Assembly: GCA_965219535.1 (NCBI GenBank)
Contig: CBDCNV010000001.1
Location: 1,110,001-1,142,000, forward strand
DNA: 32,000 nucleotides
Direction: 5' to 3'
From: Opitutales bacterium
Lineage (GTDB): Bacteria; Verrucomicrobiota; Verrucomicrobiia; Opitutales; PNEW01
Below, in pieces: positions 3,168 to 30,254 of the stretch. Position 1 is the first letter of the stretch. Every line of letters begins with the position of its first letter. A program made the position numbers and the translations under genes. The notes below the pieces were generated by a model that did not search any database, had not been told where the DNA came from, and saw nothing but the letters and a program-made list of their open reading frames with translations.

Positions 3168-3328
3168 GTCAAAAGGTCAAAAAGTCAAAAGGTCAAAACG
3201 TTAATTTGATGGTGTTTAAAATTTGATCCTATCTTAACCCATACTGATTATTTTAACCGTTGAACCGCTGAACCCCTGAACCCCTGAACCCAGATTCCCC
3301 AACCTTTTGACATTTTGACCTTTTGACT
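3168..3328. repeat. Composite intergenic repeat element A: GTCAAAAG x4 (3168-3199), AT-rich core, CTGAACCC array (3257-3300), inverted CTTTTGAC array (3303-3328)
   Basis: Read directly. The outer arms are reverse complements of each other. The element occupies nearly the whole spacer between the stop at 3159-3161 and the ATG at 3343. Confidence 0.88.
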
Positions 3329-3342
3329 TTAAAACTAATAAA

Positions 3343-4509
3343 ATGCCTGTCGTTTTGCAGCCTGAAGAAAAGAAAATTACCGAATCAAAGAAGGATGATT
3401 TGGTGGCGGGGCATTTCCAGGATTACGAATCGCTCTTGGTCAGTTTTTTTCTCACACTCTTAATCCACCTTTTAGCTTATTTCACAATTCCCAAAGCTAT
3501 TACCGCAGTACCTGGACCCGAACGGGAAAGGGTAAACGAGTTGGAATATGTTTACCAGGACATTGAAGAGAAGCCCAAACCGGAGACGCAGCGGTTTGTA
3601 GAAGCTAATCCTGATGTGCCGACAAATATACCCGATTCTACCTTAAACATTGCCGCCCGCGATCAACAGGCTGCTCAGGTGGAACAAGTTGAAATTAGTT
3701 TTAATGAAACACCTTATCTCGAGGGCGAGGAGGAGTTGTCACCAAAAATTCTGGCAGGTAGGATCCCCTCACCATCGCAACCCGTAATCGTAGCTTCACA
3801 ACAGCCGATGGGCGTTCAGGTTGCCGAGCAGAGCAGCATACCCCTAATTGAAGAGGGTGTAGTTTTTGCTTCGCCGGAACCGCCGCCGAGACCAGATTTT
3901 ATCGATTGGGAACCGGATACTGAAGAGGGGATGGCGAGCATGCTTGAGCCCGGGGAAGGGAAGGATCCTGCTGAACAGCCCGCAGATCGGGTGCCTCTCG
4001 CGATCAATCTCAATCCCGATAGCATTGAAGGTGGCACGGCGTCTAATCAGAACAGTCAGACTCAGGCCGCGGATGCACAGTCTCAAACTCAACCGCAACT
4101 TCCGAAACCACGATCCCGGCTTGCGCCCGATGTCTTACCCGGACCAATGATGAGGTCTATGTCCGGAGTGCCCGGTTTGGGAATGATTGCGATTGAAGCT
4201 AAGTTTAGCGAATTTGGAGATTATCTTCAACGCATGTATGAAGCTATTGGTTATCAATGGTTGTTGCTCGCAAATCAGACCCGTCGCGGCTCTGCCCAGA
4301 TTGCGTCTCGTGTCGTCCTGGAATTCATAATTTATAATGATGGACGCGTTGAGAATCTAAGGGTCGTTCATTCTTCTGCCGGTCAGGCAGCTACGGTAAT
4401 CTGTAAAGATGCCATACAGTCTCGCTCCCCTTTTGGAATGTGGACGGAAGAAATGGTTCGGACACTAGGTGAAGAGCAGACAATCCGTGTAACATTTATC
4501 TATCAATGA
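3343..4509 (+). CDS. TonB-like energy-transducer family protein (N-terminal TM anchor, Pro/Gln/Glu-rich linker, TonB-C-like domain)
   Basis: 388-aa ORF. It has a single N-terminal TM with His (FFLTLLIHLLAYF), a long Pro/Glu/Gln-rich low-complexity linker, and a C-terminal segment (VVLEFIIYNDGRVENLRVVHSSAGQAATVICKDAIQSRSPF...IRVTFIY) that resembles the TonB C-terminal fold pattern. Confidence 0.55.
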   Translation: MPVVLQPEEKKITESKKDDLVAGHFQDYESLLVSFFLTLLIHLLAYFTIPKAITAVPGPERERVNELEYVYQDIEEKPKPETQRFVEANPDVPTNIPDSTLNIAARDQQAAQVEQVEISFNETPYLEGEEELSPKILAGRIPSPSQPVIVASQQPMGVQVAEQSSIPLIEEGVVFASPEPPPRPDFIDWEPDTEEGMASMLEPGEGKDPAEQPADRVPLAINLNPDSIEGGTASNQNSQTQAADAQSQTQPQLPKPRSRLAPDVLPGPMMRSMSGVPGLGMIAIEAKFSEFGDYLQRMYEAIGYQWLLLANQTRRGSAQIASRVVLEFIIYNDGRVENLRVVHSSAGQAATVICKDAIQSRSPFGMWTEEMVRTLGEEQTIRVTFIYQ

Positions 4510-5285
4510 ATCTTTCTGTAAAATCGGTGACAACAGATATTCCTTTGGGGCGAGGGGTGACTGTAGTCCAATCTCACGCTTCGGGTTTGTTCGCTTTTAA
4601 TAAACCTGCGAGTGTCCGTGCGCATCCCAATTCCGCTAAAGCAGACGAACGCGCACTCCTAAACTGTACTTATAATCAGGATCTCCAATTCTACCATTGG
4701 GTTCTACCCAATGGTCGTGAGGAAAAGCTCTACCTGTTAAATCGGCTTGATTCACCCACGTCTGGTTTGATCATCGGGGCATTGTCTCTAGAGCTCGCTG
4801 AAAAAGTGAAGAAACGTTTTGCGAATAAAGAAGTGGAAAAAATATACCTTGCGGTGGTTTTTCGCGGACATGATCTGAGACGTGAAACCTGGCGTGATCA
4901 GCTAATGGTTGTAAAAGAAAACGAAAAACTGCGAACGAGGACTGATTCCTCCCAGGGTGAACACGCGCTTACCCACGTTCGCCGCATTCACTTATCAACG
5001 GGTCGATTCAAATGCGCGCTTATGGAATTACAACCTGTTACCGGGCGAACGCATCAGCTTCGCGTTCAGTGTGCGAAGAGAAGATTTTCCATCGTTGGTG
5101 ACAGCACCTATGGAGACTTTAAATTGAATCAAGAGGTGCGCAAAGCAACCGGTTGTAAACGCCTTTTTCTCCATGCCAGTCATATCCGCATTCCGCTAAA
5201 TGACACTGAACCAAGAGAGTATTTTGAAGCCGAATCACCTACACCGGCTGAATTTAACACGCTGCTTAATGAGAGCTGGCTTTAA
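4506..5285 (+). CDS. RluA-family pseudouridine synthase
   Basis: 259-aa ORF with the catalytic-Asp motif LNRLDSPTSGLIIGA and the GRTHQLRVQ motif. Its ATG overlaps the upstream TGA (ATGA at 4506-4509). Confidence 0.85.
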   Translation: MNLSVKSVTTDIPLGRGVTVVQSHASGLFAFNKPASVRAHPNSAKADERALLNCTYNQDLQFYHWVLPNGREEKLYLLNRLDSPTSGLIIGALSLELAEKVKKRFANKEVEKIYLAVVFRGHDLRRETWRDQLMVVKENEKLRTRTDSSQGEHALTHVRRIHLSTGRFKCALMELQPVTGRTHQLRVQCAKRRFSIVGDSTYGDFKLNQEVRKATGCKRLFLHASHIRIPLNDTEPREYFEAESPTPAEFNTLLNESWL

Positions 5286-5315: not shown

Positions 5316-6353
5316 ATGATTATACCAAAAGAAAATAAACTTAGCAAAGAACAGCTCAAAGAAATTGAATCGATAGTGGGTGAGTTTGAATGTAATATTC
5401 AAGTCATCACGGGTGCGCATAAAAATATTTATGCTATCATCGGTGACGAGCGCAGCGAATTGATGGTTAATCGCATCGTTGGACTCAATTATATCTCCCG
5501 CGTGGATCGCATGGAGTCAGTCTACAAGTTAATGGGTATTCGCTCAGATATGGCCGGTCATGAAATAAAAATTGGCGGCGTTACTCTTAAAAAAGAATTA
5601 TTTATTTCAGCCGGTCATTGCACCATCGATCCGAAAAACCCTCAATACTTTCTCGAGACCGCAGAAGCAGTGAAAGAAGCTGGGGCACAGGCTATTCGCG
5701 GTGGAATCTGGAAGCCGCGAACGACACCGCATTCTTTCCAGGGTGACAGTAAGTCCATAGATGTATTGTTAGAGGCGCGAGATAAAACAGGGTTACCGGT
5801 TCTCACCGAGGTTATGGATGAAGAACAAATTAAGATCACGGTTGAGGCGGGGATTGACATTTTTCAAGTTGGTACTCGGAACGCACTCAATTACTCGCTC
5901 TTAAAGCAAATTGGAAAAAGTACCGCCGGATCCAATATCGCAATCTTCCTTAAACGCAGTCGCCATATGGGGCCAATCGATGAATTTATTTCTGCGGGAG
6001 AATACATCGTATCCGGCGGTAATCCAAACATCGTGTTATGTCCCCGCGGAACGATGCCAAATATCGATGGTTACCGCAACCACCCCGATGAATCGATCAC
6101 CCCGCTTCTCAAAGAGAGGACTTGGGCACCTATTATCGTCGATCCCTCACATGCAGTGGGTCGAGCCATCTATGTACCCGCGTGTAGTCTGGCCGCCATT
6201 GCTTATGGCGCAGACGGTCTGAATATTGAAACACATATCAATCCGCAAAAGGGCATCGGTGACGATCCAGCACAAAGCGTAACACCCGATAAATTAGCAG
6301 AAATTATTAAAGACGCCCGTCAGTTGTGGATTTCCCCCTCAAGATTCGCTTGA
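5316..6353 (+). CDS. 3-deoxy-7-phosphoheptulonate (DAHP) synthase, class I-beta, with N-terminal ferredoxin/ACT-like regulatory extension
   Basis: 345-aa ORF with GGIWKPRTTPHSFQG and VDPSH motifs typical of the KDO8PS-like DAHP synthase subfamily. An extra N-terminal domain of about 90 aa precedes the barrel. Confidence 0.85.
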   Translation: MIIPKENKLSKEQLKEIESIVGEFECNIQVITGAHKNIYAIIGDERSELMVNRIVGLNYISRVDRMESVYKLMGIRSDMAGHEIKIGGVTLKKELFISAGHCTIDPKNPQYFLETAEAVKEAGAQAIRGGIWKPRTTPHSFQGDSKSIDVLLEARDKTGLPVLTEVMDEEQIKITVEAGIDIFQVGTRNALNYSLLKQIGKSTAGSNIAIFLKRSRHMGPIDEFISAGEYIVSGGNPNIVLCPRGTMPNIDGYRNHPDESITPLLKERTWAPIIVDPSHAVGRAIYVPACSLAAIAYGADGLNIETHINPQKGIGDDPAQSVTPDKLAEIIKDARQLWISPSRFA

Positions 6354-6369
6354 GAGGTAAAGTATTCTG

Positions 6370-6882
6370 ATGACTACCGGTATTGGAATTAAAACCCCGT
6401 TGCGCTATACGGTGTTTTCCCGCAAGTATAAGTGGCTTCATTTTCTCATACTGATCGCGTGCTCGTTTTTCATTTCTGGGTGTGGAAAAAGACCCATGTT
6501 GATCGCACCCGAGGAAGTATGGGAAGTGGTGAGCCGCGAGGGAGAAAAGCATAACCTTAATCCTTCTTTCATTTTTGCGATTGCTTTCGCCGAAAGCAGG
6601 TTCGATGCCCACGCGAAATCACGTCATGCTCGTGGCATGATGCAAATAAGTAAAATCGCGTGGCGGGAAGTGAGCGAACTCTCCTATCGTAAAGCCTGGG
6701 ATTGGCGTCGTAATATTGAAGTGGGAACAAACTATTTGGCCCACAATCGTGCATTGCTGCAAAAGCATCGGCACTTCAGCTACCCCCTTCTCGCCGCTTC
6801 TTATCGCTACGGATTTTATACCGTTAAAAAAAGCGGGTTTGATATTCAAAAAGTAAAAAGTCCCAAAAATAAAATCTATTAG
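6370..6882 (+). CDS. Lytic murein transglycosylase, lipoprotein (SLT domain)
   Basis: 170-aa ORF with a lipobox-like signal (LILIACSFFISGCG), the catalytic-Glu context AFAESRFDAHA and the ARGMMQIS motif of the SLT/GEWL family. Confidence 0.8.
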   Translation: MTTGIGIKTPLRYTVFSRKYKWLHFLILIACSFFISGCGKRPMLIAPEEVWEVVSREGEKHNLNPSFIFAIAFAESRFDAHAKSRHARGMMQISKIAWREVSELSYRKAWDWRRNIEVGTNYLAHNRALLQKHRHFSYPLLAASYRYGFYTVKKSGFDIQKVKSPKNKIY

Positions 6883-6930
6883 CAACTATTTGCCGGTGTG
6901 CTGGATCCCGTTGCCGTCCCTGATGTGTGA

Positions 6931-7356
6931 GGTGAACAGCAATCTTCGTCTTCGTCTGCCTCTTCGTCTTCGTCCGCGTCTGATTCTTCGTCTTTAATAA
7001 GATTCCTTAGAAATGTAGGGTCGCAAGGAGCTTGTCGGCCATAGTACCGCAGCAGTGAAGACGACGGCTGATTGCGTCCGTTTTGACAGAATGGTTACAG
7101 CCACGATCAGCCGACGCCAAGGCTATGGCCGACAGGCAGGAGCGTGGCCCTCCAGACAGGGTGTCTCTAGCACGCTTCTTTAATTACGACAAATCTAACG
7201 CGGTAGGGACACCGCGTTCCACCCTGAATTTGAATTATATAGATGAAGAGGACGAAGACGAAGAGGCAGACAAAGACGAAGCTAATAATTTCCAATCCTC
7301 AACCGTTGAACCGTTGAACCCCGAACCCCGAACCCTGAATCCCGAACCTCGAAACC
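6931..7356. repeat. Nested inverted-repeat mosaic B: CTTCGT-type arms 6944-6975 / 7250-7281 enclosing the long module 7031-7080 and short module 7108-7136; CYGAACCC array 7301-7356
   Basis: Read directly. The 32-nt arms are complementary at 31/32 positions. The inner modules pair tgtcggccata/tatggccgaca and cgacggctg/cagccgacg. It fills the convergent spacer between the transglycosylase and mutS. Confidence 0.88.
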
Positions 7357-7360
7357 TATA

Positions 7361-9910
7361 TCAAAACAGATCCTGCTGGCTGTATTCTTCATCCGTGTCT
7401 TTTGATTTTTTCCGCTTTATCATCTGACGACGAATTAAATTGTGACTGGAGTCGTCAGATTCCAATTTTTGCAGGATGGTCTTTGCCCGCCCGATAACGC
7501 TTTGAGGCAGGCCCGCCAGTCTCGCTACCTGTATCCCATAACTGCGATCGGAGGCTCCACGTATGACCTGACGCATAAATACTATTTCATCATTCCATTC
7601 TTTAACCGCGACGCAGTAATTATTAACGCGCGCAAGTTGCTGTTCCAATTGAGTCAGTTCATGATAATGGGTAGCGAAAAGGGTGCGAGGACCTCGGCTG
7701 TCGTTTCCGTGAAGATGTTCCACAACAGACCACGCAATACTTAATCCATCATAGGTGCTGGTTCCCCGCCCAATTTCATCGAGAATGATAAGACTTTTGT
7801 CGGTGGCATTATTAAGAATATTAGCCGTCTCATTCATTTCTACCATGAAGGTGGAATTCCCTTGCGATAACTCATCACTCGCGCCAACGCGTGAAAAGAT
7901 ACGATCAACTATACCGAATTGGCACCGCTTGGCTGGAACCCAGGAGCCGATCTGGGCCATGAGGACAAGGAGGGCCACTTGTCGGATGTAGGTCGACTTG
8001 CCCGCCATATTGGGCCCCGTGATCAGCCCTATTTGTTCACGATCTGCACTTAGACTGGTATCGTTGGGGACGAAGGAGCGGGTTCCTGCCAACCCGTAGC
8101 GATCGCTCTTCATCATTTGTTCCACCACCGGATGACGGCCCTCTTCTATGATTAAGGTATCGCTGTCATCTATATCCGGGCAGTTGTAATCCCATTCGCG
8201 TGCAATTTTAGACCACCCCAAAAAGAGATCCGTTCTCGCCAGTGCTTCAGCAGTTGATTTTAGATCATCAACCCTGGCCAGTACCTGTGCCACAAGTTCA
8301 CGAAAAAGAATCTCTTCCCGTGCAATGCTTTTTTCTTCGGCATGAAGAATTTCTTTCTCTTTTTCTTTAAGATCCGTCGTGTAATAACGCTCCGCATTTG
8401 TCATCGTCTGTTTCCGGATGTAATCATCGGGTACGAGATGAATATTGGACTTCGTTACCTCGATAAAATAACCGAATGCATTGTTGTATTTAATACGAAG
8501 ATTTTTTATTCCGGACCGTTTCTTTTCACTGCTTTCGAGTTCACTAATCCAAGTCTTATTGTCTCTCGAGAGTAGCCGCAAATGATCCAACTCCTCGTCA
8601 TACTGATCACGGATATAATTGCCATCCTGAAGCTGGTTGGGGAGCGTTTCCACTAATGATTTGTTGAGGAGGTCTCGCAGTTCCGGGAAATCATCAACTT
8701 TGTTACACAGCTCAGTCACATTGGGGCCGTCAAACTCCTGGAGCACGCGAATAATGAGTGGGAGTTGTTGTAAGGTGTCACGAATGCCACCCAGTTCGCG
8801 GGGATTGCGCAGGCGGTTCTGCAAACGGCCGAGGATCCTCGTGACATCGCGAACACACTTTAGGTAGTCATGTAATTCGGAGCCGAGACTGGGAGCTTCG
8901 AGAAATTCACCCACACAGTGTTGCCGCTTTTTAATCTCACTCAAATCGAGGATGGGTTCCGCGAGATAGAGTTCGAGTAGTCTTGAACCTGCCGCTGTAA
9001 CCGTAGCATCCATGACCGCGATAAGTGATCCGTCACGCGTATTGTTGGTCGTTCGGAATACTTCCAAATTCCGTAGGGTCGCGGGATCGAGAAGGAGAGA
9101 ACGAGTACTGCGATATTCGCGGATCAAGTTTAAATTTGCCGGTTTGGCGCAAAGATTTTCTGTAGCGTAATAGATAAGGGCACCTGCCGCTCCAAGCGCA
9201 GCGTGGTCCCGGTTCAAGCCAAAGCCCTCGAGATTGAGCACCCCCAGGGTTTCCATGACCGTTTTTGCTCCCGTGGATTGCTCAAAATGATAGTCGGGTA
9301 ATTCATTCAAGGGATTTCCTTCGCAGAAATTAATCAAGGGTTCGAGCCAGGATAAATGCCGATCCCGTTCCGAGAATAATTCACGACAGCTTTCAGGAAT
9401 TATAATCTCTCGGGGCTCGATGCTCGTGAAGAGGGGAAGCAGATTCTCCGGATTTTGATCGGTAGTAATTTGGAAATCACCAGTTGTTAGATCCAGCCAC
9501 GCGGCGTGAATAGAATCATCCGAAAGATAAAAGGAAAGCAGGTAGTGGTTTTTACGTGCTTCGATTTGATGGTCTTCAAGTATCGTGCCGGGCGTGAGAA
9601 TGCGTGTGAGTGCGCGTTTGACAATTTTTCCCGGTTGCGGGGATTCTATTTGATCGCAAATCGCCACTTTCATACCTGCTGCGAGTATCTTGCCAATATA
9701 ATTATCGGCGGCATGGAAGGGGATTCCGGCCATCGGCTGCTTGTGTCGAGCAGTTAAGGTGATGCCGAGTATCTCAGCTCCCCGCTTCGCGTCTTCATCA
9801 AACATCTCGTAGAAATCACCCAGACGAAAGAGCAGCAACGTATTCGGCGGCAGGTTCTCGCGAACCCCCAAATACTGCTGCATCATCGGAGTGAGTGTTT
9901 TCTTGGGCAT
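7361..9910 (-). CDS. mutS: DNA mismatch repair protein MutS
   Basis: 849-aa ORF with the N-terminal mismatch-binding motif RLGDFYEMF, Walker A GPNMAGKSTY, and Walker B/signature region LIILDEIGRGTSTYDG. Confidence 0.97.
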   Translation of the reverse strand: MPKKTLTPMMQQYLGVRENLPPNTLLLFRLGDFYEMFDEDAKRGAEILGITLTARHKQPMAGIPFHAADNYIGKILAAGMKVAICDQIESPQPGKIVKRALTRILTPGTILEDHQIEARKNHYLLSFYLSDDSIHAAWLDLTTGDFQITTDQNPENLLPLFTSIEPREIIIPESCRELFSERDRHLSWLEPLINFCEGNPLNELPDYHFEQSTGAKTVMETLGVLNLEGFGLNRDHAALGAAGALIYYATENLCAKPANLNLIREYRSTRSLLLDPATLRNLEVFRTTNNTRDGSLIAVMDATVTAAGSRLLELYLAEPILDLSEIKKRQHCVGEFLEAPSLGSELHDYLKCVRDVTRILGRLQNRLRNPRELGGIRDTLQQLPLIIRVLQEFDGPNVTELCNKVDDFPELRDLLNKSLVETLPNQLQDGNYIRDQYDEELDHLRLLSRDNKTWISELESSEKKRSGIKNLRIKYNNAFGYFIEVTKSNIHLVPDDYIRKQTMTNAERYYTTDLKEKEKEILHAEEKSIAREEILFRELVAQVLARVDDLKSTAEALARTDLFLGWSKIAREWDYNCPDIDDSDTLIIEEGRHPVVEQMMKSDRYGLAGTRSFVPNDTSLSADREQIGLITGPNMAGKSTYIRQVALLVLMAQIGSWVPAKRCQFGIVDRIFSRVGASDELSQGNSTFMVEMNETANILNNATDKSLIILDEIGRGTSTYDGLSIAWSVVEHLHGNDSRGPRTLFATHYHELTQLEQQLARVNNYCVAVKEWNDEIVFMRQVIRGASDRSYGIQVARLAGLPQSVIGRAKTILQKLESDDSSHNLIRRQMIKRKKSKDTDEEYSQQDLF

Positions 9911-9914
9911 TTAA

Positions 9915-10101
9915 CTAGTCAAAAAGCCATTTCAATTGTCGATTTTCGAATGACGATTGTCGATTTGGAAAATATCGACCTTCGACATCTCAATGAATGC
10001 TATTAACCCAAACAGAGATTTTTTTTCAACTGCTGAACCCTGAACCCTGAACCCTGATTCCCAAACCTTTTGACCTTTTGACATTTTGACCTTTTGACTA
10101 G
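9915..10101. repeat. Composite intergenic repeat element C: CTAGTCAAAAAG (9915-9926), core with ATTGTCGATTT x2, CTGAACCC array (10030-10062), CTTTTGAC array ending GACTAG (10066-10101)
   Basis: Read directly. Its ends are palindromic (ctagtcaaaaag ... cttttgactag). It lies 4 nt from the mutS start codon and 1 nt from the holB stop codon. Confidence 0.88.
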
Positions 10102-10102
10102 T

Positions 10103-12777: not shown

Positions 12778-13013
12778 TTAATTTAAAATTTAATATTTTT
12801 CAGAAGTTTAGCAGCGCGTCAGGGCCATGCAAGCTAGCAATGATGTGTTGCACAATTATTCTTGTTTTAAGCTTAATGGATTCTCAATAAATACGTCTTG
12901 AAATCATCAAGATAAACCCAACGTTCTCATTCTGGAACTCATCTCTGTGCCCAGGTATTCCAAAAAACACTATTTTTTAATTTTCAGGTTTGCCAATGGT
13001 AGCTTACTATAAC

Positions 13014-13031
13014 GATAGTGTATGCACTATC
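13014..13031. promoter_or_regulatory. Candidate operator: palindrome GATAGTG-tatg-CACTATC (Fur-box-like half sites) upstream of exbB
   Basis: 7-nt perfect inverted repeat with a 4-nt spacer, 30 nt upstream of ATG 13061. A third ACTAT unit lies at 13006-13010. It resembles GATAAT-type hexamer arrays. The regulator assignment is inference only. Confidence 0.3.
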
Positions 13032-20302: not shown

Positions 20303-20391
20303 AAAATCTATGGATTTTCTATCTTGCCCCTGACTGGTAAAATAATCAGGATCGCCAGTTTGCTATTTTACTGACTCAAGATATACAGACT

Positions 20392-22490: not shown

Positions 22491-22806
22491 GTCAAAAAGT
22501 CAACAGCCGTCGCCAAGGCTATGGCCGTCAAGAAAGGTCAAAAAGTCAAAATGTTGATTCTTCTGGAGGGACGCACGGTGCCTGTCGGCCATAGTACCGC
22601 AACAGCGAAGACGACGGCTGATTGCGTCCGCGGACATATTTGTGAATAAATAAAGCCAGATATTTATTTATAATAAGCGGCCACAACGGAGTGTGGCCCT
22701 CCAAATTATATACCGTCTTATAAAACATTCGGACTTCCTTTAAAACCCTATTCATTCTTCCCTGAACCCTGATACCCTGAACCCTGGGCGGAACGTCGGC
22801 TCCGCC
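22491..22806. repeat. Mosaic J: GTCAAAAG units (22491-22506, 22537-22553), short module (22504-22532), long module (22581-22630), hairpins (22679-22698, 22787-22806), CTGAACCC array (22761-22787)
   Basis: Read directly. 22581-22630 matches 7031-7080 at 47/50 positions. The short and long modules are mutually inverted, as in mosaic B, but in the opposite order. Confidence 0.85.
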
Positions 22807-22811
22807 GAAGT

Positions 22812-23645
22812 TTAAAGTCCAAATATTCTGCCAAGCATTTTCCAGATGCTCATGCCACCGCCTTGCTGTTGCTGTTGGCCTTTGCTTTGACTGCTGCCGC
22901 TGCTGCCGCCGCCACTCCCTTGGCCTCCACCCTGGCCGCTGCTGCCCGATGAGCTCTGTGATTGCTGACTCTGCGAGGATTGATTCCCTTGATTTGAAGC
23001 CATGTTTCTCTGATTCTGGCTCATCTGTCCACCGGCCTCTTGCATCTGTTGCTGACCGGGCATCTGGTTCATTTGGCCCGGGAAGCCTCCCATTTGTGCC
23101 ATTTCTCCACTCTCTTGAGCTTCCCTCATTTGAGCCATCTGCGCCGCACTCATTGGGCCGGTATTGATAATCGTGCCTTGTTCATTGCTTTGAGATGAAC
23201 CTGACGATCCCTGGTTGCCAGGGATCTCCGCAACTTGTAAGCCCTCCGGTTGACCACCGCTCATGGCGTCTTCGAACATGCCATCGGAAAATTGCCAAAC
23301 ATATATCTCACTACTCTTTAAGTAGGGGAGCTCGAAGGTGGCCAAATCTAGTATTTCCTGTAATTCAAAACTTTTTTCTTCCGCGGTGTAGTAGTCATCG
23401 GTGGGGCCAAAGTAATATGTGAGGTTAGCGTGAGTATAGCGGACATAATAGCCCTCCTCATCGGGGATATCACTGGATACATCTATCCCGGGATACTTCT
23501 TTTTGAATTCGTCCTGCCTTAAACGCCCGCTCTCATAGATAGCCTCCATCGGTAAGATGAGTGACAATGCAAGAAGGGACTGAGTACCCAGGAGACTAAC
23601 TAACCCGAATACTGTGAATCTCTTTAATAGGAAAAGTATACTCAT
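22812..23645 (-). CDS. Secreted protein: small N-terminal globular domain plus Met/Gln/Gly/Ser-rich disordered C-terminal half; function unknown
   Basis: 277-aa ORF with a signal-like N-terminus (FGLVSLLGTQSLLALSLI). The low-complexity region has 10 Met in 51 residues (MSAAQMAQMREAQESGEMAQMGGFPGQMNQMPGQQQMQEAGGQMSQNQRNM), followed by a Ser/Gln/Gly tract and a short amphipathic tail, MSIWKMLGRIFGL. Confidence 0.6.
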   Translation of the reverse strand: MSILFLLKRFTVFGLVSLLGTQSLLALSLILPMEAIYESGRLRQDEFKKKYPGIDVSSDIPDEEGYYVRYTHANLTYYFGPTDDYYTAEEKSFELQEILDLATFELPYLKSSEIYVWQFSDGMFEDAMSGGQPEGLQVAEIPGNQGSSGSSQSNEQGTIINTGPMSAAQMAQMREAQESGEMAQMGGFPGQMNQMPGQQQMQEAGGQMSQNQRNMASNQGNQSSQSQQSQSSSGSSGQGGGQGSGGGSSGSSQSKGQQQQQGGGMSIWKMLGRIFGL

Positions 23646-24506: not shown

Positions 24507-24717
24507 ATCTTCGTCTGCCTCATCGTCCTCGTCCTGGAAAAGTGGAATAAAGGAATAATGGAAGAACGGAAGATTGGATGCTTGGAAGGGTAGATTAATA
24601 AAACTGTTCACTGTTCACCGTTCACTGTTCACTTAGTCTTACCTGTCCTGAGCGTAGTCGAAGGGAATAATCGCCACGCTTACTAGACGTAGACGAAGAG
24701 ACAGACGAAGACGAAGC
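24507..24717. repeat. Mosaic K: CTTCGT-type arms (24507-24534 / 24686-24717) enclosing GGAANNNN x7 (24536-24591), CACTGTTC array (24604-24632) and a CCTGAGC..GTCGAAGGG module (24642-24665)
   Basis: Read directly. The arms are complementary at about 21/25 positions. The right arm ends gacgaagctaat, as in mosaic B (7274-7285). Confidence 0.87.
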
Positions 24718-26520: not shown

Positions 26521-26562
26521 TTTTTATCGTAAAATCTTAAAAATAAGATTTTACGATAAAAA
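26521..26562. repeat. Perfect 19-bp inverted repeat with 4-nt loop (tttttatcgtaaaatctta aaaa taagattttacgataaaaa)
   Basis: Read directly. It is AT-rich and lies 81 nt upstream of the TPR gene's start codon on the minus strand. Confidence 0.92.
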
Positions 26563-26852
26563 GTCGAATGTCGAAGGTCGAAAGTCTAATGTCAGATTAA
26601 ATTCCCACTTTCGACCTTCGACCTTCGACTTTTGACGGAGGGTGCCTAAATCTCAAATAGAAGCCCGATCATTCTCCACAGACACCTGCCTGCCCTGAGC
26701 CCAGCCGAAGGGCTCGCCCTGAGCCTTGTCGAAGGGAACCCATATTCAATCCGCAACTCCCCACTGTTCACTGTTTACCGTTCACTGTTCACTGATCTTC
26801 CCCCTTTCGACTTTCGACGAAGGAGGACAACGGTTTACCGTTGTCCTCCTTC
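26563..26852. repeat. Mosaic L: GTCGAAGG arms (26563-26586 / 26607-26636), CCTGAGC..GAAGGG modules x2 (26685-26736), CACTGTTC array (26762-26794), CTTTCGAC units (26804-26818), 15-bp perfect hairpin (26819-26852)
   Basis: Read directly. The terminal hairpin contains the last five codons and the stop codon of the upstream ABC fusion gene. Confidence 0.87.
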
Positions 26853-29800
26853 AAACCGAATCCTCGGATCCAGCCACATCAACAGTAGATCACTGACGAG
26901 AGTGCCGAACACACCGAGGAGGCTGAGGACCATCAACATCGATCCGGCCAAATACATGTCTTCGGTCATCAGCGCTTCGAGCATCATGGGCCCAACGGTG
27001 GGCAGACTTAAGACCATCGCGACAATCGCTCCGCCGGATACGAGTTGTGGAAACAAGGTGCCGATCCCGGATATAAAGGGATTAAGCGCAATGCGAACCG
27101 GGTATTTCAGCAGCAGCTTAAAGGGACGGACACCTTTTGCCATCGCGGTGATCACGTAAGGCTTCTTTAATTCATCGAGCAGATTACCGCGCATCACACG
27201 GATCATGCTCGCGGTTCCTGTCACTCCCAGGACTACGACCGGCATCCAGATATGCTGCAACAAGTCAACTACTTTGCCCCAGGACCATTCCGGTTGGGTG
27301 GCGTACTCGGATGAAAATAATCCCGACATACTGATCCCAAAATAAACATTGCTCCAATACATGAGTAATATCGCGAGGAGGAAGCTGGGCACACACATTC
27401 CGATAAATCCCAGGAGCGTGAAAAAGTAGTCGCCGATCGAATATTGGCGCACCGCGGAATATATACCGATCGGCAGGGCGACCGCCCAAGTAAAGAGCAC
27501 GGAGCCCAGTGAAATTAAAAAGGTTAGCAGGATGCGGTCGCCCACCACTTCATTGACGGGCTTTCGGTTATGCATGGAAAACCCCATGTGCCCCTGGAGC
27601 AATCCTTGATCCGCAGGTTTAAAGGAGAGAAACCAGGGAAGGCCCAACCAGTGGGCATACTGGTAAACGGTATGTCTATCGATGGGAAAGAGCTCACGCA
27701 GTTGCTGAGCTTCGGTTATCGCCTTTTGATCGTTCGTTAATTCGGCTTGTAAAATTTTCGAATCAACGAAGTTTCCCGGGGGCAGTTGAATGATCGTAAA
27801 GGCGATAATGGAAATGACGAGAAGGGTGGGCACCATAATGAGAAAACGCCTCCCCACATAAGGATGCTTTACCCCGACAAGAATCAGACCGACGACGACT
27901 ATACCGTAACAAAACAAACGAATCAACCAGCTGAGGATTTTACCGCTGCCGGTCTCAGCATAAATTCTGTCAGTCGAGTAGGGCGAGGGCCCAATTTCAG
28001 AAATCTCTCGTTTGATCTGCGCAACTGCGCCGGGAGAATCCTTCGGGTTTTCAAAAAAGAAGGTTTCGAATCCGCAGCTGGAAGGACTCTTATAAAGAGA
28101 TCCGTAGATGGCTTTACGCGGAACGTTTCTAAAATCCTTCTTAACGATCACTATGCTGGGCGGGGGAGTCGCAATATTGATATTCCAGATATTTTCTGCC
28201 GCGATGTCCTGGATTTCACTGTAAAATTTTACTTGCTCTTCGAAGGTAAGCGCGCTGTAAGCGCTATCGAGCAATTCCATGGATCGCCTCAGGGGATGAC
28301 CGGGTGGGGGTTCGGTGCGACCCGGTCTTTTTGATTCCGGTTCTCCGTAGAGACCGCCATCCTGGTACCAGAGTATATAACCTGCGGCCTCAATGTGTCC
28401 CGGTATAAATCGGTTTGATGAAACTAAGGGTTGATACTCGCCTTCAACACCCCAGATGTGAAAATCCAATTTGCGGGCCGGCTGTTCCGCGATGTGAAGA
28501 GTATAGGATCGCACCTTTTCAATCGTATTGATTCCAACCTTTTTCCAGTCATTGGCGACAAAAGAGGAGGGGCCCTCGCTGAAATTAGGAATCATGTTTA
28601 AATACCATGCCATGCGCGTCCCGTCTTTAAAGGTACGGAAGCCCTCGGTGTCACGTCCTGTGAGACCGATTTCATCGAGCATTTGGTTCGCGCGTTCGGG
28701 GTCGTATTCGATATAGCTGTTTTTTAATTTTTCATGGTAAAAGGGGGACTCCTTTCCCGGCGAATTCTGTGAGGGTTCACCATAGCCGTGGTAAACCGCA
28801 TCGATAATTTTCTGGCGATTGATCGCCAGAGAGAGGGCTTGCCGAAAATGTTTGTTGTTGAGCAATTCCCACTTATTACGGGTCTTCGGATCATTGGGAT
28901 CTATATAGCGATCGAGATTAGGATATAATGCCCAGTCAGAAGAGCCTGAAGTATACCAGTGATAGACATCATAATTACCTTTATCGCGATGTGACATAAA
29001 CAAAGTGTAATGAAAATAGTAGATATTAAACCCCTGCATCGTAATTGAACCATTCGATGCGGCGATAGGAACTAGTCTTTCTGTTTTTACATCGACCGTA
29101 AATCGGTCGACATAGGGTAACTGATTTCCTTGGGAGTCTACTGCGTAATAATAGGGATTGCGCACAAAGGTTTGAGGGGGGTTGGGTTTGTAGGTGCGGT
29201 AGACCCAGGGCCAGATGCGAGGATGTTCCGAGTTATTGCTCAACTTAAGTGTAATATAGAGTGCGTCTTTCGTGGTTATTTTATTTACCCGCATCATCCC
29301 CTCGATAAGTTCCTCATCGCCAAGTTGGGGGTGATAGGGTTCCAGGTAGTGGCGGGGCGAATATAATTCAATGACCGGAGCTAAACGTTCCAGCAGTAAC
29401 ACGTGAGGGGCGGGAAAAATAAATTTCACGGTGTGGGAGTCAATCTTGATGATATCTCCCTTTTTGCCTTTTATCTTCATCCAGGTAGGGAAACCGATGA
29501 TCTCGTCTTTCACCTCGTGCTCCCACCAGTAGAGAATATCATCTGCGGTGAAAGGATGACCGTCTGACCATTTTATTCCCTTGCGCAGATAAAACGTCCA
29601 CTCTTTTTTGTCGGGGGTAAATTCCCAGCTCTTGGCAATGTGAGGGACAATAGGGTATCCCATCGGTGACCAGCGAACGAGGCAGGCTCCCGACATCCAT
29701 GATTCAATATGATCCAGCGTAGCGGGACTGTTCGTTACAATGTTCCAGGTTCCCCCGTACTTGCCGATGCCATCAACGCCCTCGATCACCACCGGTTCGG

Positions 29801-30131
29801 GTCCCACCCGTTCCGCTACCGGAGGGAGCTTTCCCTCTTGAACGAGTTCCGCGAGGATCGGCGCTTCCCCTTTTGGATACCAGGCGCCCGATGTTCCCTC
29901 CGCATAATCGACATTGCGCTGAACAGCGTACAAATCCTCCTCACTGAAACTGTAATCCCAAAGCTCTTCCTGTTCCCGAAGCTTTTCCGGAGAATAAACT
30001 ATAGGTTCCACCTCCAGCTCCGGTTTAGTCACACCCCCCCAGAAATAATAAAGACAGAAAATGAATAAGCCCGTTATGAATAAGAAAAGGAATTTTGGGA
30101 TAATTGCTCTCTTATTCATAACCGAAATCAC
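26835..30131 (-). CDS. ABC transporter fusion protein: family-5 (peptide/nickel, DppA/OppA-like) substrate-binding domain fused to a DppB/OppB-like permease
   Basis: 1098-aa ORF. It has an N-terminal TM anchor and an SBP_bac_5-like region (KYGGTWN, IAKSWEFTPDKKEWTFYLRKGIKWSDGHPFTADD). An extra TM (ILSWLIRLFCYGIVVVGLILVGV) follows, then a permease N-terminus (GRRFLIMVPTLLVISIIAFTIIQLPPGN) and an EAA-loop region (YVITAMAKGVRPFKLLLKYPVRIALNPF). GTG at 30131; alternative ATG at 30119. Confidence 0.85.
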   Translation of the reverse strand: MISVMNKRAIIPKFLFLFITGLFIFCLYYFWGGVTKPELEVEPIVYSPEKLREQEELWDYSFSEEDLYAVQRNVDYAEGTSGAWYPKGEAPILAELVQEGKLPPVAERVGPEPVVIEGVDGIGKYGGTWNIVTNSPATLDHIESWMSGACLVRWSPMGYPIVPHIAKSWEFTPDKKEWTFYLRKGIKWSDGHPFTADDILYWWEHEVKDEIIGFPTWMKIKGKKGDIIKIDSHTVKFIFPAPHVLLLERLAPVIELYSPRHYLEPYHPQLGDEELIEGMMRVNKITTKDALYITLKLSNNSEHPRIWPWVYRTYKPNPPQTFVRNPYYYAVDSQGNQLPYVDRFTVDVKTERLVPIAASNGSITMQGFNIYYFHYTLFMSHRDKGNYDVYHWYTSGSSDWALYPNLDRYIDPNDPKTRNKWELLNNKHFRQALSLAINRQKIIDAVYHGYGEPSQNSPGKESPFYHEKLKNSYIEYDPERANQMLDEIGLTGRDTEGFRTFKDGTRMAWYLNMIPNFSEGPSSFVANDWKKVGINTIEKVRSYTLHIAEQPARKLDFHIWGVEGEYQPLVSSNRFIPGHIEAAGYILWYQDGGLYGEPESKRPGRTEPPPGHPLRRSMELLDSAYSALTFEEQVKFYSEIQDIAAENIWNINIATPPPSIVIVKKDFRNVPRKAIYGSLYKSPSSCGFETFFFENPKDSPGAVAQIKREISEIGPSPYSTDRIYAETGSGKILSWLIRLFCYGIVVVGLILVGVKHPYVGRRFLIMVPTLLVISIIAFTIIQLPPGNFVDSKILQAELTNDQKAITEAQQLRELFPIDRHTVYQYAHWLGLPWFLSFKPADQGLLQGHMGFSMHNRKPVNEVVGDRILLTFLISLGSVLFTWAVALPIGIYSAVRQYSIGDYFFTLLGFIGMCVPSFLLAILLMYWSNVYFGISMSGLFSSEYATQPEWSWGKVVDLLQHIWMPVVVLGVTGTASMIRVMRGNLLDELKKPYVITAMAKGVRPFKLLLKYPVRIALNPFISGIGTLFPQLVSGGAIVAMVLSLPTVGPMMLEALMTEDMYLAGSMLMVLSLLGVFGTLVSDLLLMWLDPRIRFEGGQR

Positions 30132-30169
30132 AGTTAATATCTTAGTAAATTAGTAAAATGAATTTTAGC

Positions 30170-30254
30170 CACCAGTCGTCGCCAAGGCTATGACCGGCAG
30201 GCAAGAGGCACAAGAAACACCAGCCGTCGCCAAGGCTATGGCCGGCAGACAAGA
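30170..30254. repeat. Two direct copies (48-nt period) of the short module caccagYcgtcgccaaggctatgRccggcagRcaaga
   Basis: Copies at 30170-30206 and 30218-30254 match at 34/37 positions. It is the same module as 7108-7136 and 22504-22532. Confidence 0.9.

Follow-up and report, generated by a model that had tools for sequence, protein, structure and literature searches.

Tandem heptamer repeats have already been described in cyanobacteria, Beggiatoaceae and Bacteroidetes. In the account of Mrazek (2007) given in PMC4679880, bacterial LSSRs prefer heptamers, a preference attributed to polymerase slippage. Such arrays can also be paired, as in Xanthomonas, where Rehm et al. (2015; PMC4692102) reported that each genome has 70-75 pairs of arrays of the heptamer GGGAATC in convergent orientation. 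For arrays of the unit TAACTGA, MacGregor (2015) proposed binding by S1, Csp or CsrA. The repeats analysed here are likewise inverted pairs, and the inverted-arm architecture that a sequence-only reading of this DNA had called their defining feature is not unique to this genome. The STRR and BIME repeats offered by that reading are reasonable analogues; the general kind (heptamer LSSR/STRR) is catalogued, and no function is known for it.

The window, i.e., the whole stretch of 32,000 nucleotides that was analysed, belongs to a marine Opitutales (Verrucomicrobiota) MAG and not to a cyanobacterium, in agreement with the earlier judgement on its gene content, and its MutS is 99% identical to that of an Opitutales MAG. 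It was compared with L003 (genes 96-98% identical), with L132, a species at ~89% whose genes differ from the window by ~10%, and with L010, an 82%-identical, array-poor relative (0.55 arrays per 10 kb, i.e., nearly array-free). The repeats were found in independent assemblies (an ENA long-read contig, a Logan short-read contig and an NCBI MAG), and an assembly artefact is therefore excluded. Tandem Repeats Finder and direct reading agree in placing arrays of period 6, 7 and 8 at essentially all the coordinates listed before, and the same units do recur as a vocabulary common to several loci of the window. Heptamers (~14 arrays) outnumber octamers (~9) and hexamers (3-4), which corrects the statement that most units are octamers; two of the units then listed, CACTGTTC and GTCGAAGG, are the 7-mers ACTGTTC and GTCGAAN. 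The features are as follows, with strand given for the one feature to which it is assigned:

3168-3199, E1 5' arm, GTCAAAAN x4, starting 7 nt past the stop of an outer-membrane efflux gene
3200-3256, E1 core, AT-rich and unique, ancestral spacer
3257-3300, CTGAACC(C) array (complement GGGTTCAG), unpaired, four C3+ tracts
3303-3328, E1 3' arm, NTTTTGAC x3, ending 15 nt short of the next start codon
6943-6994, E2 5' arm, array of GTCTTC/CTTCGT hexamers interrupted by GCC
7242-7281, E2 3' arm, GACGAA units
7296-7357, CCGAACC/CTGAACC array whose end lies 4 nt short of the mutS stop codon; the sense strand of mutS is the G-rich one
9915-9926, remnant of the E3 5' arm, GTCAAAAAG, separated from the mutS start codon by 5 nt
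9935-9965, ATTGTCG x4.4 array within the replaced E3 core
10030-10062, CTGAACC x3.6 array, four CCC tracts
10065-10101, E3 3' arm, NTTTTGAC x4, its end 1 nt short of the holB stop codon
13778-13810, E4 outer 5' arm, GTCAAAAN x4, its first base directly after the exbB stop codon
13821-13850, E4 inner hairpin 5' arm, GTKTTAR x4
13931-13960, 3' arm of the E4 inner hairpin, YTAAMAC units; a single degenerate TTTTGTC unit and then the exbD start codon come next
17204-17229, solitary NTTTTGAC x3 array adjoining the canonical HU terminator hairpin (17230-17262)
17792-17836, ACTTTCR x6 array (GTYGAAA on the complement), which overlaps a GCV_T-family gene at its 3' end
18777-18813, E7 5' arm, GTKTTAR x4-5
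18821-20195 (approximate ends), minus strand, IS481-family insertion sequence in the E7 core (Pfam rve/LZ_Tnp_IS481)
20272-20320, E7 3' arm (20272-20302) and small hairpin AGAAAATC-NNNN-GATTTTCT (20301-20320)
22491-22553, GTCAAAAN units (E8 arm) after the mdh stop codon, split by a 30-nt GC-rich module (~22496-22525)
22761-22787, CTGAACC x3.7 array, four CCC tracts; the minus-strand gene at 22812-23645 has its stop 25 nt away
24507-24534, E9 5' arm, CTTCGT type
24536-24591, GGAANNNN x7 array, unpaired
24603-24633, ACTGTTC x4.4 array, unpaired
24686-24717, E9 3' arm, GACGAA type
26559-26593, E10a 5' arm, GTCGAAN x4, preceded by a perfect 19-bp hairpin (26521-26562); z about -12
26607-26636, E10a 3' arm, (N)TTCGAC x4, last unit TTTTGAC
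26762-26794, CACTGTT x4.7 array, paralogue of 24603-24633
26804-26818, CTTTCGA x2, adjoining a hairpin which extends over the stop of the 26835-30131 gene

Arrays of period 6-8 occupy 7.09% of the intergenic bases versus 0.07% of the coding bases, and 200 shuffles of the intergenic sequence produced none. Within the window, the units exceed what composition predicts: GTCAAAA occurs 30 times versus 7.7 expected (top shuffle value 14), GTKTTARGTKTTAR 11 times versus 0, and GAACCCYGAA 6 times versus 0.24. Array density reaches 7.8 per 10 kb, compared with 0-1 per 10 kb at ~70 unrelated bacterial loci. This is a real, fast-changing non-coding repeat. The elements span the whole spacer, with arms abutting the flanking genes at 0-25 nt from the ORFs; the flanking genes are in tandem in 11 cases, convergent in 5 and divergent in 3. 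Spacers had been described as assembled from arrays; arrays do lie in them, but of the 16 spacers, 12 consist of arrays to the extent of only 12-49%, and over all spacers together the share of bases is 18%; the arrays therefore bracket the spacers rather than compose them. Confinement to non-coding DNA, right up to the coding boundaries, would be expected of a neutral by-product, in which slippage-prone heptamer/octamer DNA builds up under weak selection and inverted pairs survive as tolerated imperfect palindromes. The general heptamer preference of LSSRs in the account of Mrazek (2007), the unit-number polymorphism with rapid turnover, and the near-absence from L010 also fit this explanation, which we nevertheless consider improbable on the evidence of orientation, motif and arm conservation given below.

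Arrays of the same family within one spacer are inverted in 10 of 10 pairs and never direct, around AT-rich cores as had been claimed. Complementarity is 96% for 3168-3193/3302-3327 and for 26559-26585/26607-26633, 92% over 37 nt for 6944-6980/7245-7281, 89% for 13821-13848/13933-13960 and 76% for 24508/24711. The elements fold with z-scores of -2 to -13 (about -10 for the whole of E2), and the arms pair better than shuffled arrays. The CTGAACC(C), ACTGTTC and GGAANNNN arrays have no inverted partner in the window; a shorter inverted copy of the GGAANNNN array lies in the L003 spacer downstream of mutS. Two-deep nesting, also proposed before, is clear at 13778-13966 and 6941-7284 only. In a metagenome scan, 36 contig stretches holding 40 elements (30 non-redundant; GC 0.28-0.65) were all ordered GTCAAAAN...NTTTTGAC, and the opposite order was not found in the same gap range. 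Arm polarity is absolute, and each unit type has its own family-specific polarity; these counts, 40 to 0 for polarity and 10 to 0 for inversion, argue against a neutral by-product.

Several side observations concern the distribution of the repeats. Compact copies exist with 17-26-nt loops, hairpin elements lie in frame within a 1711-aa phage ORF, solitary GTCAAAAN arrays immediately precede start codons in viral contigs, and the phage-like contigs L088 and L117 use the same repeat vocabulary.

In each unit the motif is fixed except at one or two positions, which are free (in 5' arrays GTCAAAA+N, GTCGAAN, GTKTTAR and GTCTTC), and variation is restricted to particular positions of the unit. Across 58 GTCAAAAN units, positions 1-7 are invariant at 93-100%, while position 8 is A25/G18/T15; among the metagenome elements, C at position 8 is common in high-GC contigs only. 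The same heptamer is retained over contigs of GC 0.28-0.65, including genomes of 60-65% GC, and one genome holds several unrelated motif families with one common architecture. Both the identical heptamer and the confinement of variation count against a neutral by-product. Between the two arms, free positions match as complements no more often than by chance (4/12 versus 0.33 expected), and pairing is therefore not being optimised; the better-folding strand shows no correspondence with the direction of transcription. The long transcribed hairpin suggested before thus gains no support from strand asymmetry or from the variable arm positions. The terminator-like layout of an A-rich 5' arm and a U-rich 3' arm is found only in the GTCAAAAN family, GTKTTAR showing the opposite.

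Conservation of the motif rather than of pairing, with positions 1-7 fixed, position 8 free and tracking GC, and non-complementary free positions, would suit binding-site arrays for host proteins, whose convergent placement at the boundaries of genes would serve to regulate or organise the neighbours, with hairpin potential as a by-product. The candidates would be cooperative binders of 7-8-bp subsites on dsDNA, such as ribbon-helix-helix proteins, or S1, cold-shock or CsrA-like proteins on RNA. Tandem operator subsites of 7 and 8 bp, as in omega and MetJ, provide a precedent. The strict polarity, the persistence of the motif against mutation pressure in 60-65% GC genomes, the solitary arrays before viral start codons and the proposal of MacGregor (2015) agree with this explanation. 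However, at least six motifs would require several proteins or a very degenerate reader, no binding protein was identified, close strains differ at the same genes, the flanking genes form no obvious functional class, L010 is nearly without arrays, and the use of TTGAC as an outward-facing promoter was negative (4/52 versus a background of 3.5). We regard such binding arrays as quite unlikely. Slippage alone leaves the retention of the same heptamer across loci, lineages and GC, and the absolute polarity, unexplained; a sequence-specific protein would account for both more naturally.

Comparison of orthologous spacers, which had been recommended, revealed differences in both unit number and whole contents. 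When the window is aligned with L003 by blastn, the alignments are interrupted precisely at the repeat spacers, and genomes that are ~96.5% identical have swapped the entire contents of spacers. Unit number is polymorphic between strains: the 17204-17229 site holds 2, 3, 3, 3 or 4 units in other strains (and GTCGAAGG/GTCTAAAG units in L109), and the site at 17792-17836 has six units in the window versus a single ACTTTCGAC in L003, the GCV_T-family protein being 313 aa in the window versus 308 aa elsewhere. E3 arms differ in size between genomes (4+2 versus 2+5 units), with 4 full units at the 5' arm site in L003 and 2 in L132. The array at 3257-3300 shows a concerted unit change from CTGAACCC to CTGAACCG in L003, and is shorter and without CCC tracts in L132. 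These variations point to slippage. Copying of ready-made arrays is suggested by 24603-24633 and 26763-26793, which are paralogous because they are 96.8% identical and share an internal ACCGTTC variant in the same variant order; by the junction GATTCCCAAACCTTTTGAC, recurring in E1, E3, L003 and L105; and by the module of small hairpin plus GTKTTAR array, present in three different spacers in different strains. In addition, 10030-10062 with its adjoining arm is 89% identical to 3263-3327, and the arm type of the E2 5' arm recurs at 24507-24534 and in L003.

The centres of the elements appear to be insertion sites. E7 is intact without the IS481-family element in L101-L103 (empty site), the L118 orthologue of the element at 22491-22553 is a simple, uninterrupted GTCAAAAN...NTTTTGAC hairpin that lacks the 30-nt module, and GC-rich modules lie within the E2 and E8 cores. 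The ATTGTCG array is missing from the orthologous E3 cores of L003 and L132, and E4 in L003 keeps both GTCAAAAN arms around a different core, the L010 spacer being only ~25 nt. Simple AT-rich cores are ancestral spacer, since the E1 core aligns with array-poor L010 and the L003 E3 core is 74% identical to that of L132. The E1 core, for which a paralogue search found none, is 72% identical to L132, the arms being identical. The E1 5' arm is the same in the window, L003 and L132 but for one free position, and the E1 arms show 1 substitution in ~51 positions across genomes, whereas genes differ by ~10% and cores by ~27%, a contrast that a neutral by-product does not predict.

Reiterated transposase-binding sites forming terminal inverted repeats, as in eukaryotic Foldback elements, would make these arrays the ends of non-autonomous transposons, in which a transposase encoded elsewhere or phage-borne mobilises the DNA between two correctly oriented arms. 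The polarity of 40 to 0, family-specific for every unit type, motif constancy with free positions, the same modules in different spacers of different strains, the vocabulary common to L088, L117 and contigs of GC 0.28-0.65, the in-frame elements of the phage ORF and the compact copies are all compatible with this. Yet none of the 40 elements has a direct-repeat target duplication, the flanks instead continuing the palindrome, and simple elements have unique cores with homology to ancestral spacer; on these two tests the earlier MITE reading fails. Moreover, elements persist at orthologous sites where genes have diverged by ~10%, and their arms are better conserved than the genes, unlike the decay of dead MITEs; the arrays also have no candidate transposase linked to them. 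The window holds two IS types, the IS481-family element of E7 among them, and the ends of both are unrelated to the arrays. A transposon origin is thus unlikely.

The explanation that we tentatively favour, at a little under even confidence, is that LSSR/STRR-type short tandem repeats with 6-8-nt units were amplified in this lineage as polar foldback units forming boundary hairpins, and are not classical transposons. A 5' array begins 0-25 nt from one gene and a complementary array ends 0-25 nt from the next; what they enclose is either the AT-rich spacer that was there first or material inserted later (other arrays, REP-like GC-rich modules, IS481). As the arms lie at both spacer ends, the whole spacer can fold back, either in its RNA form, if it is transcribed, or by cruciform extrusion. 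Replication slippage would resize arrays in place, ectopic recombination between arrays would copy whole arrays and arm-plus-junction modules to other spacers, and a fragile foldback centre may be a hotspot of breakage and insertion, which would give rise to nested mosaics and to the replacement of entire alleles from strain to strain. A constraint would hold motif and orientation, most plausibly because a stem that spans the spacer at gene boundaries brings some benefit, or because no other form of it is tolerated: between convergent genes it might end or insulate transcripts, and between co-directional genes mask or couple the downstream start. Chance-level pairing of free positions, the lack of strand preference, a terminator-like layout in the GTCAAAAN family only, the array-poor L010 and the several motif families count against such boundary hairpins. 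L010 is nearly array-free and close strains swap whole elements, and therefore no given element is essential. The repeats of this genome extend the heptamer repeats described from other bacteria to a new phylum and to a stricter architecture.

The arrays of the window are non-coding, intergenic and hypervariable tandem repeats of the LSSR/STRR kind, arranged in polar foldback pairs that bracket the spacers in which they are found. Tandem Repeats Finder (TRF) returned 47 rows, equivalent to 25 arrays of period 6-8 in the 32 kb once overlaps are discounted, and both this result and the direct reading of every spacer place arrays where an earlier sequence-only reading had reported them. When coding and intergenic DNA were separated with a gene model built from Pfam-supported ORFs, arrays of period 6-8 were found to cover 7.09% of the intergenic bases of the window versus 0.07% of the coding bases, so the units are not as common inside genes as outside them. 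Array coverage was zero in intergenic shuffles (n=200). Nor are the units explained by composition, a possibility that the same reading had left standing: the motif GTCAAAA occurs 30 times in the window against 7.7 expected (shuffle maximum 14), GTKTTARGTKTTAR 11 times against 0, and GAACCCYGAA 6 times against 0.24. An independent short-read contig shows the identical sequence, and a long-read contig differs from it only slightly; the repeats are therefore not an assembly artefact. LSSRs (Mrazek 2007, as cited in PMC4679880) are repeats with units of 5-11 nt; the arrays studied here consist of head-to-tail units in that range, are longer than composition predicts, have heptamers as their most abundant class, and show periods that are not multiples of 3 in non-coding DNA only. 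The TRF periods (around 14 arrays of 7, 9 of 8 and 3-4 of 6) contradict the statement that most units are octamers, and CACTGTTC and GTCGAAGG, as listed in that reading, are really 7-mers. The earlier observation is thus confirmed, and is sharper than originally stated, while its interpretation is only partly supported.

Arrays make up 12-49% of the sequence in 12 of the 16 spacers and, by TRF coordinates, 18% of all spacer bases in the window; the spacers are thus bracketed by arrays, and not built from them as had been proposed. The inverted arms are real, with a complementarity of 76-96%, and all ten same-family array pairs located within one spacer (in the window, its flanks and the related locus OY829953.1, hereafter L003) are inverted. 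For the numbered foldback elements (each consisting of a 5' array, a core and a 3' array), MFE z-scores against dinucleotide shuffles go from about -2 (E8) to -13 (E10a). The C-rich, ACTGTTC and GGAANNNN arrays are unpaired in the window.

The units combine a fixed motif with one or two free positions. A set of 58 GTCAAAAN units drawn from six genomes is 93-100% invariant at positions 1-7, while position 8 is free (A25/G18/T15). Variation in GTKTTAR is limited to positions 3 and 7, and in GTCNAAN to positions 4 and 7. When the 5' and 3' arms were compared at these free positions, 4 of 12 were complementary, with a fraction of 0.33 expected by chance, which indicates that the arms are the same motif in opposite orientations and not mirror copies. 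GTKTTAR, GTCTTC and GTCGAAN form the 5' arm in every case. The arm edges lie within a few bases of neighbouring stop or start codons, and one array even runs into the GCV_T gene, whose product ends in ...GNSPKSKVES here versus ...DKSRK elsewhere. In practical terms, the repeat spacers disrupt alignments and assemblies, yield spurious ORFs and lengthen real proteins:

13778: arm edge directly after the exbB stop codon
10101: arm edge one base before the holB stop codon
7083-7427: spurious ORF of 114 aa arising from repeats
Long-read ENA contig (L001): spurious 50-aa call arising from repeats
GCV_T: protein lengthened by 5 aa by an array

The reading that is preferred here, which we regard as plausible rather than probable, is that the arms form a spacer-wide stem at the gene boundary, which would end or insulate convergent transcripts and would mask or couple the downstream start in co-directional pairs. 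Several data speak against this boundary stem: the arms are not complementary at the free positions, the folding asymmetry is unrelated to the direction of transcription, GTKTTAR has the "wrong", U-rich arm first, and arrays are nearly absent in the relative Opi.OSU.00C (L010). 

Selection for a hairpin in the sense RNA found no support, as the better-folding strand ignores transcription direction and the free positions are unpaired; the role as transcribed hairpins that had been suggested before finds support in neither strand asymmetry nor free-position pairing. TTGAC units acting as outward -35 boxes were also discarded, given that a -10 box at 16-18 bp appears in 4 of 52 flanks versus a background of 3.5. 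A scan for consensus promoters and terminators gave the same counts as shuffles, a search of the window against Rfam yielded 0 hits at gathering thresholds (with four chance-level hits at E up to 1), and no tRNA or tmRNA was detected. When the concatenated spacers were compared with PLSDB plasmids by BLAST, a search weakened by the low-complexity filter, the sole matches were two trivial GAC/GAA-rich ones.

Two kinds of core have been distinguished. In the simple elements, namely E1, E3, the E4 inner hairpin and the versions in L003, the core is AT-rich and unique; E2, E8, E9 and E10 have complex cores that contain further arrays, along with GC-rich, REP-like modules found again at other loci. 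These modules constitute a second repeat class, REP-like in look:

GC-rich core class: 47-nt module GTCGGCCATAGTACCGCA...GATTGCGTCCG, 24-37-nt module CAGCCGWCGCCAAGGCTATGGCCG..., and hairpins of the form GGAGGG...CTCCGTCG...
7036-7082 and 22583-22630: GC-rich core repeats
7108-7137, 22504-22533, 30170-30206 and 30218-30254: GC-rich core repeats
7140-7158, 22568-22590 and 22678-22708: GC-rich core repeats

The stems of the GC-rich hairpins show compensatory variation (GGACGCG/CGCGTCC versus GGCCACG/CGTGGCC in L003 and strain L105), and, compared with L118, a species with ~90% identity, a GTCAAAAN unit is interrupted at 22496-22525 by a short GC-rich module. Another small dispersed repeat, CCTGAGC..(A/T)GTCGAAGGG, is located at 24648-24667, at 26692-26738 (two copies in tandem) and in the spacer downstream of mutS in L003. 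The array at 24536-24591 (GGAANNNN x7) presents seven GGA(A) motifs with 8-nt spacing, and in this resembles the GGA arrays of CsrA-sequestering sRNAs; L003 carries a shorter, inverted copy. On the same contig, ~150-260 nt upstream of window position 1 (L112 11850-11960), a CTTCGT-armed core contains TCATTGCGAGGAGCACCGCGACGAAGCAATCC and its partner ...TTCGCGATGACA, a small palindrome that we take to be found in many phyla.

The genes of the window are of the housekeeping type (nadE, an outer-membrane efflux protein, mutS, holB, tmk, exbB/exbD/tonB, two DAHP synthases, mdh and HU), and its mobile DNA consists of an IS481-family element and IS3 fragments. The MutS protein is 99% identical to that of the Opitutales MAG OY829953.1 (L003), 89% to that of Verrucomicrobia bacterium Opi.OSU.00C (L010) and 57-65% to those of other Opitutales, so that the earlier remark that the gene content is not cyanobacterial proved correct. 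Opi.OSU is a single-cell genome from the Sargasso Sea (PMC6003095), indicating that the host belongs to a marine Opitutales lineage; the idea that Opi.OSU.00C came from a cyanobacterial co-culture was rejected on the basis of the same source. Some genes deserve separate mention. Two ORFs (16133-16495 and 16520-17146) are apparently remnants, in the region 15913-17146, of one gene of 379-401 aa without a Pfam match, and since this gene is intact in strains L101-L109, the copy in the window is probably a pseudogene. A 1098-aa ORF (26835-30131) fuses SBP_bac_5 (family-5 solute-binding) and BPD_transp_1 (ABC permease) domains in an unusual architecture; in the ENA contig, the gene caller begins four codons later (1094 aa). 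The region 30327-31945 holds a small PD-(D/E)XK_3 ("GxxExxY"-type) gene followed by IS3-family fragments (orfA from ~30685; HTH_21 and rve_3 ORFs at 30980-31945), and a full IS3 copy lies just outside the window (L115 3353-4468).

Array density is lineage-specific. Per 10 kb, the window has 7.8 arrays and L003 has 7.1, whereas L010 has 0.55, other Opitutales have 0-2.4, and most of ~70 unrelated bacteria have 0-1. Between the window and L003, whose genes are 96-98% identical, blastn alignments end exactly at the repeat spacers. Of the spacers with arrays, conservation is seen at E1 and at the HU-terminator array; an outer arm is retained around a different interior at E3, at E4 and in the GCV_T-HU spacer, and the spacers downstream of nadE, mutS and the aminotransferase gene, as well as the DAHP/GCV_T spacer, hold altogether different elements. 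The array-free divergent promoter spacers 1699-1766 and 12778-13054 are 95-98% conserved in L003.

Seven further strains with an identical HU protein extend this picture to the strain level. The HU-adjacent site carries 2, 3, 3, 3 or 4 GTCAAAAN units depending on the strain, and L109 presents GTCGAAGG/GTCTAAAG units where other strains carry the GTCAAAAN array. E7 exists as an intact hairpin without IS481, that is, as an empty site, in L101-L103, while L105, L106 and L003 have in that divergent spacer a wholly different GTCAAAAN-armed element. A module consisting of a small hairpin (AGAAAATC-NNNN-GATTTTCT) and a GTKTTAR array appears in three different spacers in a strain-dependent manner. The arrays at 24603-24633 and 26763-26793 are 96.8% identical and share an internal ACCGTTC variant, three CTTCGT-armed elements have the same GCC interruptions, and the junction GATTCCCAAACCTTTTGAC is recurrent across loci, all of which indicates that arrays are copied ready-made. 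Arrays also grow in place, as deduced from 17792-17836, with six units in the window versus one in L003, and from the concerted change of units from CTGAACCC to CTGAACCG in the C-rich array of E1. The stem of the HU terminator, CCCCAGGCAGTGCCTGGGG (17230-17262), is replaced in L101 (3277-3320) by the wholly different but still paired CCCGCGGGCAACGCCCGCGGG at the same position.

The E1 spacer aligns end to end with the spacer of array-poor L010, whose edges show degenerate units only, and the E3 core is 74% identical between L003 and L132, a species whose genes are ~89-90% identical; therefore, the cores of simple elements are old spacer. The E1 arms differ by one substitution in ~51 positions among the window, L003 and L132, versus ~5 changes expected by our arithmetic at gene-level divergence, with the core at 72% and the genes at ~89-90% identity. 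The E3 arms keep the motif with changed unit counts (from 4+2 to 2+5). E8 in the window is a degraded ancestral hairpin. Its orthologue in L118 is simple, a GTCAAAAN hairpin of 123 nt, whereas the window version bears a 30-nt GC-rich module inside one unit of its left arm, has a core filled by REP-like modules, and carries a CTGAACC array in place of the right arm.

A mechanism for this turnover can be postulated. Slippage would resize the arrays. Arrays also offer homology at many loci and in every register, and recombination between them would copy arms and swap interiors. The centre of a long imperfect palindrome would be the preferred point of breakage, repair and insertion, and breakage and insertion at palindrome centres are an established behaviour in bacteria. 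The IS481 element in the E7 core, the nested modules and the cores that diverge faster than genes are consistent with a fragile centre. As to that insertion (~18821-20195), a 5-nt duplication (GGTAC) at 18821, the end of the IS, distinguishes the window from L001. Another IS481 copy adjoins the aminotransferase gene in a second sample of the same strain (L113 13305-14468), where neighbouring genes are split. With slippage and drift at work, the arrays might be taken for a purely neutral by-product; we consider this quite improbable, as neither process accounts for the frozen arms of E1, for a polarity without exception, or for a heptamer that stays constant at different loci, in different lineages and at different GC contents.

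The polarity was determined in a metagenome collection with two patterns of equal composition and equal gap (80-110 nt). The divergent order (TTTTGACNTTTTGAC...GTCAAAANGTCAAAA) was found in 0 stretches, versus 36 stretches carrying 40 elements for the convergent order. After deduplication 30 elements remained, 17 of them at a GC content of 0.44-0.51 (many from a ~90% relative of the window species), 6 at 0.28-0.40 and 7 at 0.59-0.65; their contexts were tandem in 11 cases, convergent in 5 and divergent in 3, with 11 contig-edge cases. No two cores of the 40 elements are alike, sizes span 70-480 nt, degenerate units in the flanks often prolong the palindrome, and the arms lie 0-25 nt from neighbouring ORFs according to naive ORF calls. 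C at the free eighth position of GTCAAAAN is common only in high-GC contigs. In this orientation the motif is either recognised or needed by some factor. The arrays could be protein-binding sites, a general proposal in line with this constancy of the motif that we nonetheless regard as very doubtful. A further reading, in which GTCAAAA with its free, GC-drifting eighth base would be the site of a conserved orientation-sensitive protein and convergent arrays would represent a widespread prokaryotic foldback class, seems to us unlikely.

In 17 viral contigs GTCAAAAN x3 is mostly solitary, and a start codon often follows it immediately. L088, a phage-like contig (60% GC, with a terminase whose matches are too distant to point to a host), is packed with GTCGAAGG/CGACCTT hairpins, and its 1711-aa ORF (5829-10964, IMGVR_UViG_3300037518_000430) runs in frame through three of them, translated as ...SKVEGRK...GPSTFDL.... 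As GTCGAAGG arrays are stop-free in all six frames, elements of this type may be able to sit inside genes. The two orders gave 0 versus 0 for GTCGAAGG hairpins in viral contigs, and 1 versus 0 for GTCAAAAN at short gaps. Inverted heptamer pairs of their own kind are also present in unrelated genomes: a Thermodesulfovibrio MAG, a metagenome contig (51% GC, CGCCAAG/CTTGGCG), a viral contig (63% GC, 16 arrays) and another Opitutaceae MAG; these loci are L017 7177-7712, L120, L117, and L006 4575-4611 and 7998-8029. The architecture thus extends beyond the GTCAAAAN motif.

A mobile origin has been considered in two forms. Like the MITEs Nezha, Correia and ERIC (PMC3184786), the elements are small, non-coding and intergenic, have terminal inverted repeats and stable predicted hairpins, and show filled and empty sites between close relatives. 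However, MITEs have target-site duplications, conserved cores and sizes, and terminal inverted repeats shared with a parent IS, none of which was found here: no consistent direct repeat flanks the 40 metagenome elements or those of the window, the cores of E1, E3, E4 and the L003 elements are unique, and the ends of the IS481 and IS3 copies in the window are unrelated to the arrays. A MITE-like nature was consequently rejected for its lack of target duplications and conserved cores. The second form is a foldback-type transposon whose reiterated units would be transposase sites. Eukaryotic Foldback (FB) transposons, from Drosophila and related, are kilobase-sized, with demonstrated transposition and target duplications. 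They resemble the window elements in their long inverted arms of tandem short repeats, arm lengths that vary from copy to copy, heterogeneous and often unrelated loops, and a fixed outward polarity of the arm repeats. They are the nearest analogue in architecture only, with no homology implied, and we see this transposon as a possible but improbable explanation.

Among prokaryotic repeats, the STRR tandem heptamers of heterocystous cyanobacteria were reportedly described by Mazel et al. in 1990. They comprise several families per genome (STRR1 CCCCAGT, STRR2 TTGGTCA, STRR3 CAACAGT) in hundreds of intergenic copies of unknown function. The window arrays are likewise tandem intergenic heptamers of several families, in a member of the Verrucomicrobiota instead of a heterocystous cyanobacterium, and their units (GTCAAAAN, GTCGAAN, GTKTTAR, CTTCGT, CTGAACC and ACTGTTC) do not match; the best correspondence is that of ACTGTTC with the STRR3 complement ACTGTTG (6 of 7). 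A 50-kb stretch of Nostoc PCC 7120 plasmid alpha carries five arrays, all solitary (~1 per 10 kb), which differ in unit and layout from those of the window.

The closest described system is that of the GGGNATC-type heptamers of Xanthomonas and Nostoc, despite the different phylum. Their units (GGGAATC / GGGGA(C/T)T) are intergenic, with a preference for four units and unknown function, and form 70-75 convergent (inverted) GGGAATC-type pairs with stem-loop potential per Xanthomonas genome and few inverted pairs in Nostoc; in Xanthomonas they are under-represented between divergent ORFs, lie near stops (sense) or starts (antisense), and differ strongly in array length between Xcc and Xac, with sequence, too, varying widely among close relatives (Rehm 2015, PMC4692102). 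The arrays of the window are also intergenic heptamers in inverted pairs that vary between close relatives, and the CTGAACC(C) arrays (complement GGGTTCAG), which have a GATTCCC unit at the end, follow the same placement rule as those G-rich repeats:

7296-7357, 10030-10062, 22761-22787 and L112 11706-11757: G-rich strand downstream of a stop, sense
3257-3300: G-rich strand upstream of a start, antisense

In contrast to the single G-rich unit type of that system, at least six unrelated unit types, mostly without G-tracts, are found in the window, its G4-capable arrays are unpaired, and the repeats occupy the most variable part of the genome rather than unusually stable loci (PMC4692102). Within the window, 4 of 4 CTGAACC(C) arrays (5 of 6 if its flanks are counted) contain four C3+ tracts, which makes a G-quadruplex function attractive there; at E1, however, the orthologous arrays in L003 and L132 have lost this feature, and the lack of conservation speaks against such a function. 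A G3+ tract in every unit, as in the GGGNATC type, is not to be expected of the other five families.

The TAACTGA repeats of Beggiatoaceae, cyanobacteria and Bacteroidetes are patchy, cross-phylum intergenic heptamers, with 169 direct sets versus one inverted, mostly just upstream of starts and reading towards the gene (PMC4679880). As in the window, they are intermingled with different heptamers, close strains differ by indels that are multiples of 7 nt, and there are relatives with the same gene order and short repeat-free spacers, but they consist of one motif in direct repeats, instead of several motifs in inverted arms. The REP/BIME sequences of Enterobacteria and the REPINs of Pseudomonas, for which roles in termination and mRNA stabilisation have been proposed (PMC2817692, PMC3733652), are similarly extragenic mosaics of alternating hairpin-forming units and IS targets. 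A REP unit is nevertheless a GC-rich imperfect palindrome of 20-40 bp with a GTAG or CGTC tag, linked to a RAYT, whereas the arms of the window are tandem non-palindromic 6-8-mers, none of which fits that description, and the main family is AT-rich; the GC-rich core modules (GGAGGG...CTCCGTCG) come closer. No RAYT (IS200-like) transposase is encoded in the ~46 kb of this genome that were covered. A literature search of incomplete coverage, and hence no proof of absence, found nothing linking Opitutales or Verrucomicrobia to such repeats.

Cyanobacteria have been known to carry intergenic heptamers since 1990, and reports from Xanthomonas, Burkholderia, Beggiatoaceae and Bacteroidetes followed; to our knowledge, neither the mechanism of their origin nor their function has been established. 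The system is not categorically new. What is new is the phylum, the multi-family vocabulary including octamers, the nested mosaics, and a polarity rule with constraint at the level of the motif. The locus adds testable rules: a fixed motif plus free positions, inverted non-mirror arms, absolute polarity, arms that abut coding boundaries, ancestral cores and extreme strain turnover. Of specialist interest are the 40:0 polarity, the GC-independent heptamer and the cassette-like turnover between strains. Since the same spacers hold different alleles in several near-identical genomes, the lineage represents a natural experiment on how such repeats affect neighbouring expression, how fast they change and what moves them. 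If GTCAAAA is indeed the site of a conserved orientation-sensitive protein, the repeats could be a new phage-spread mobile element that captures or replaces whole intergenic regions or, alternatively, a gene-boundary code read by a host factor, and either would explain the strict polarity, the persistence of the motif at 28-65% GC and the replacement of spacers between near-identical strains.
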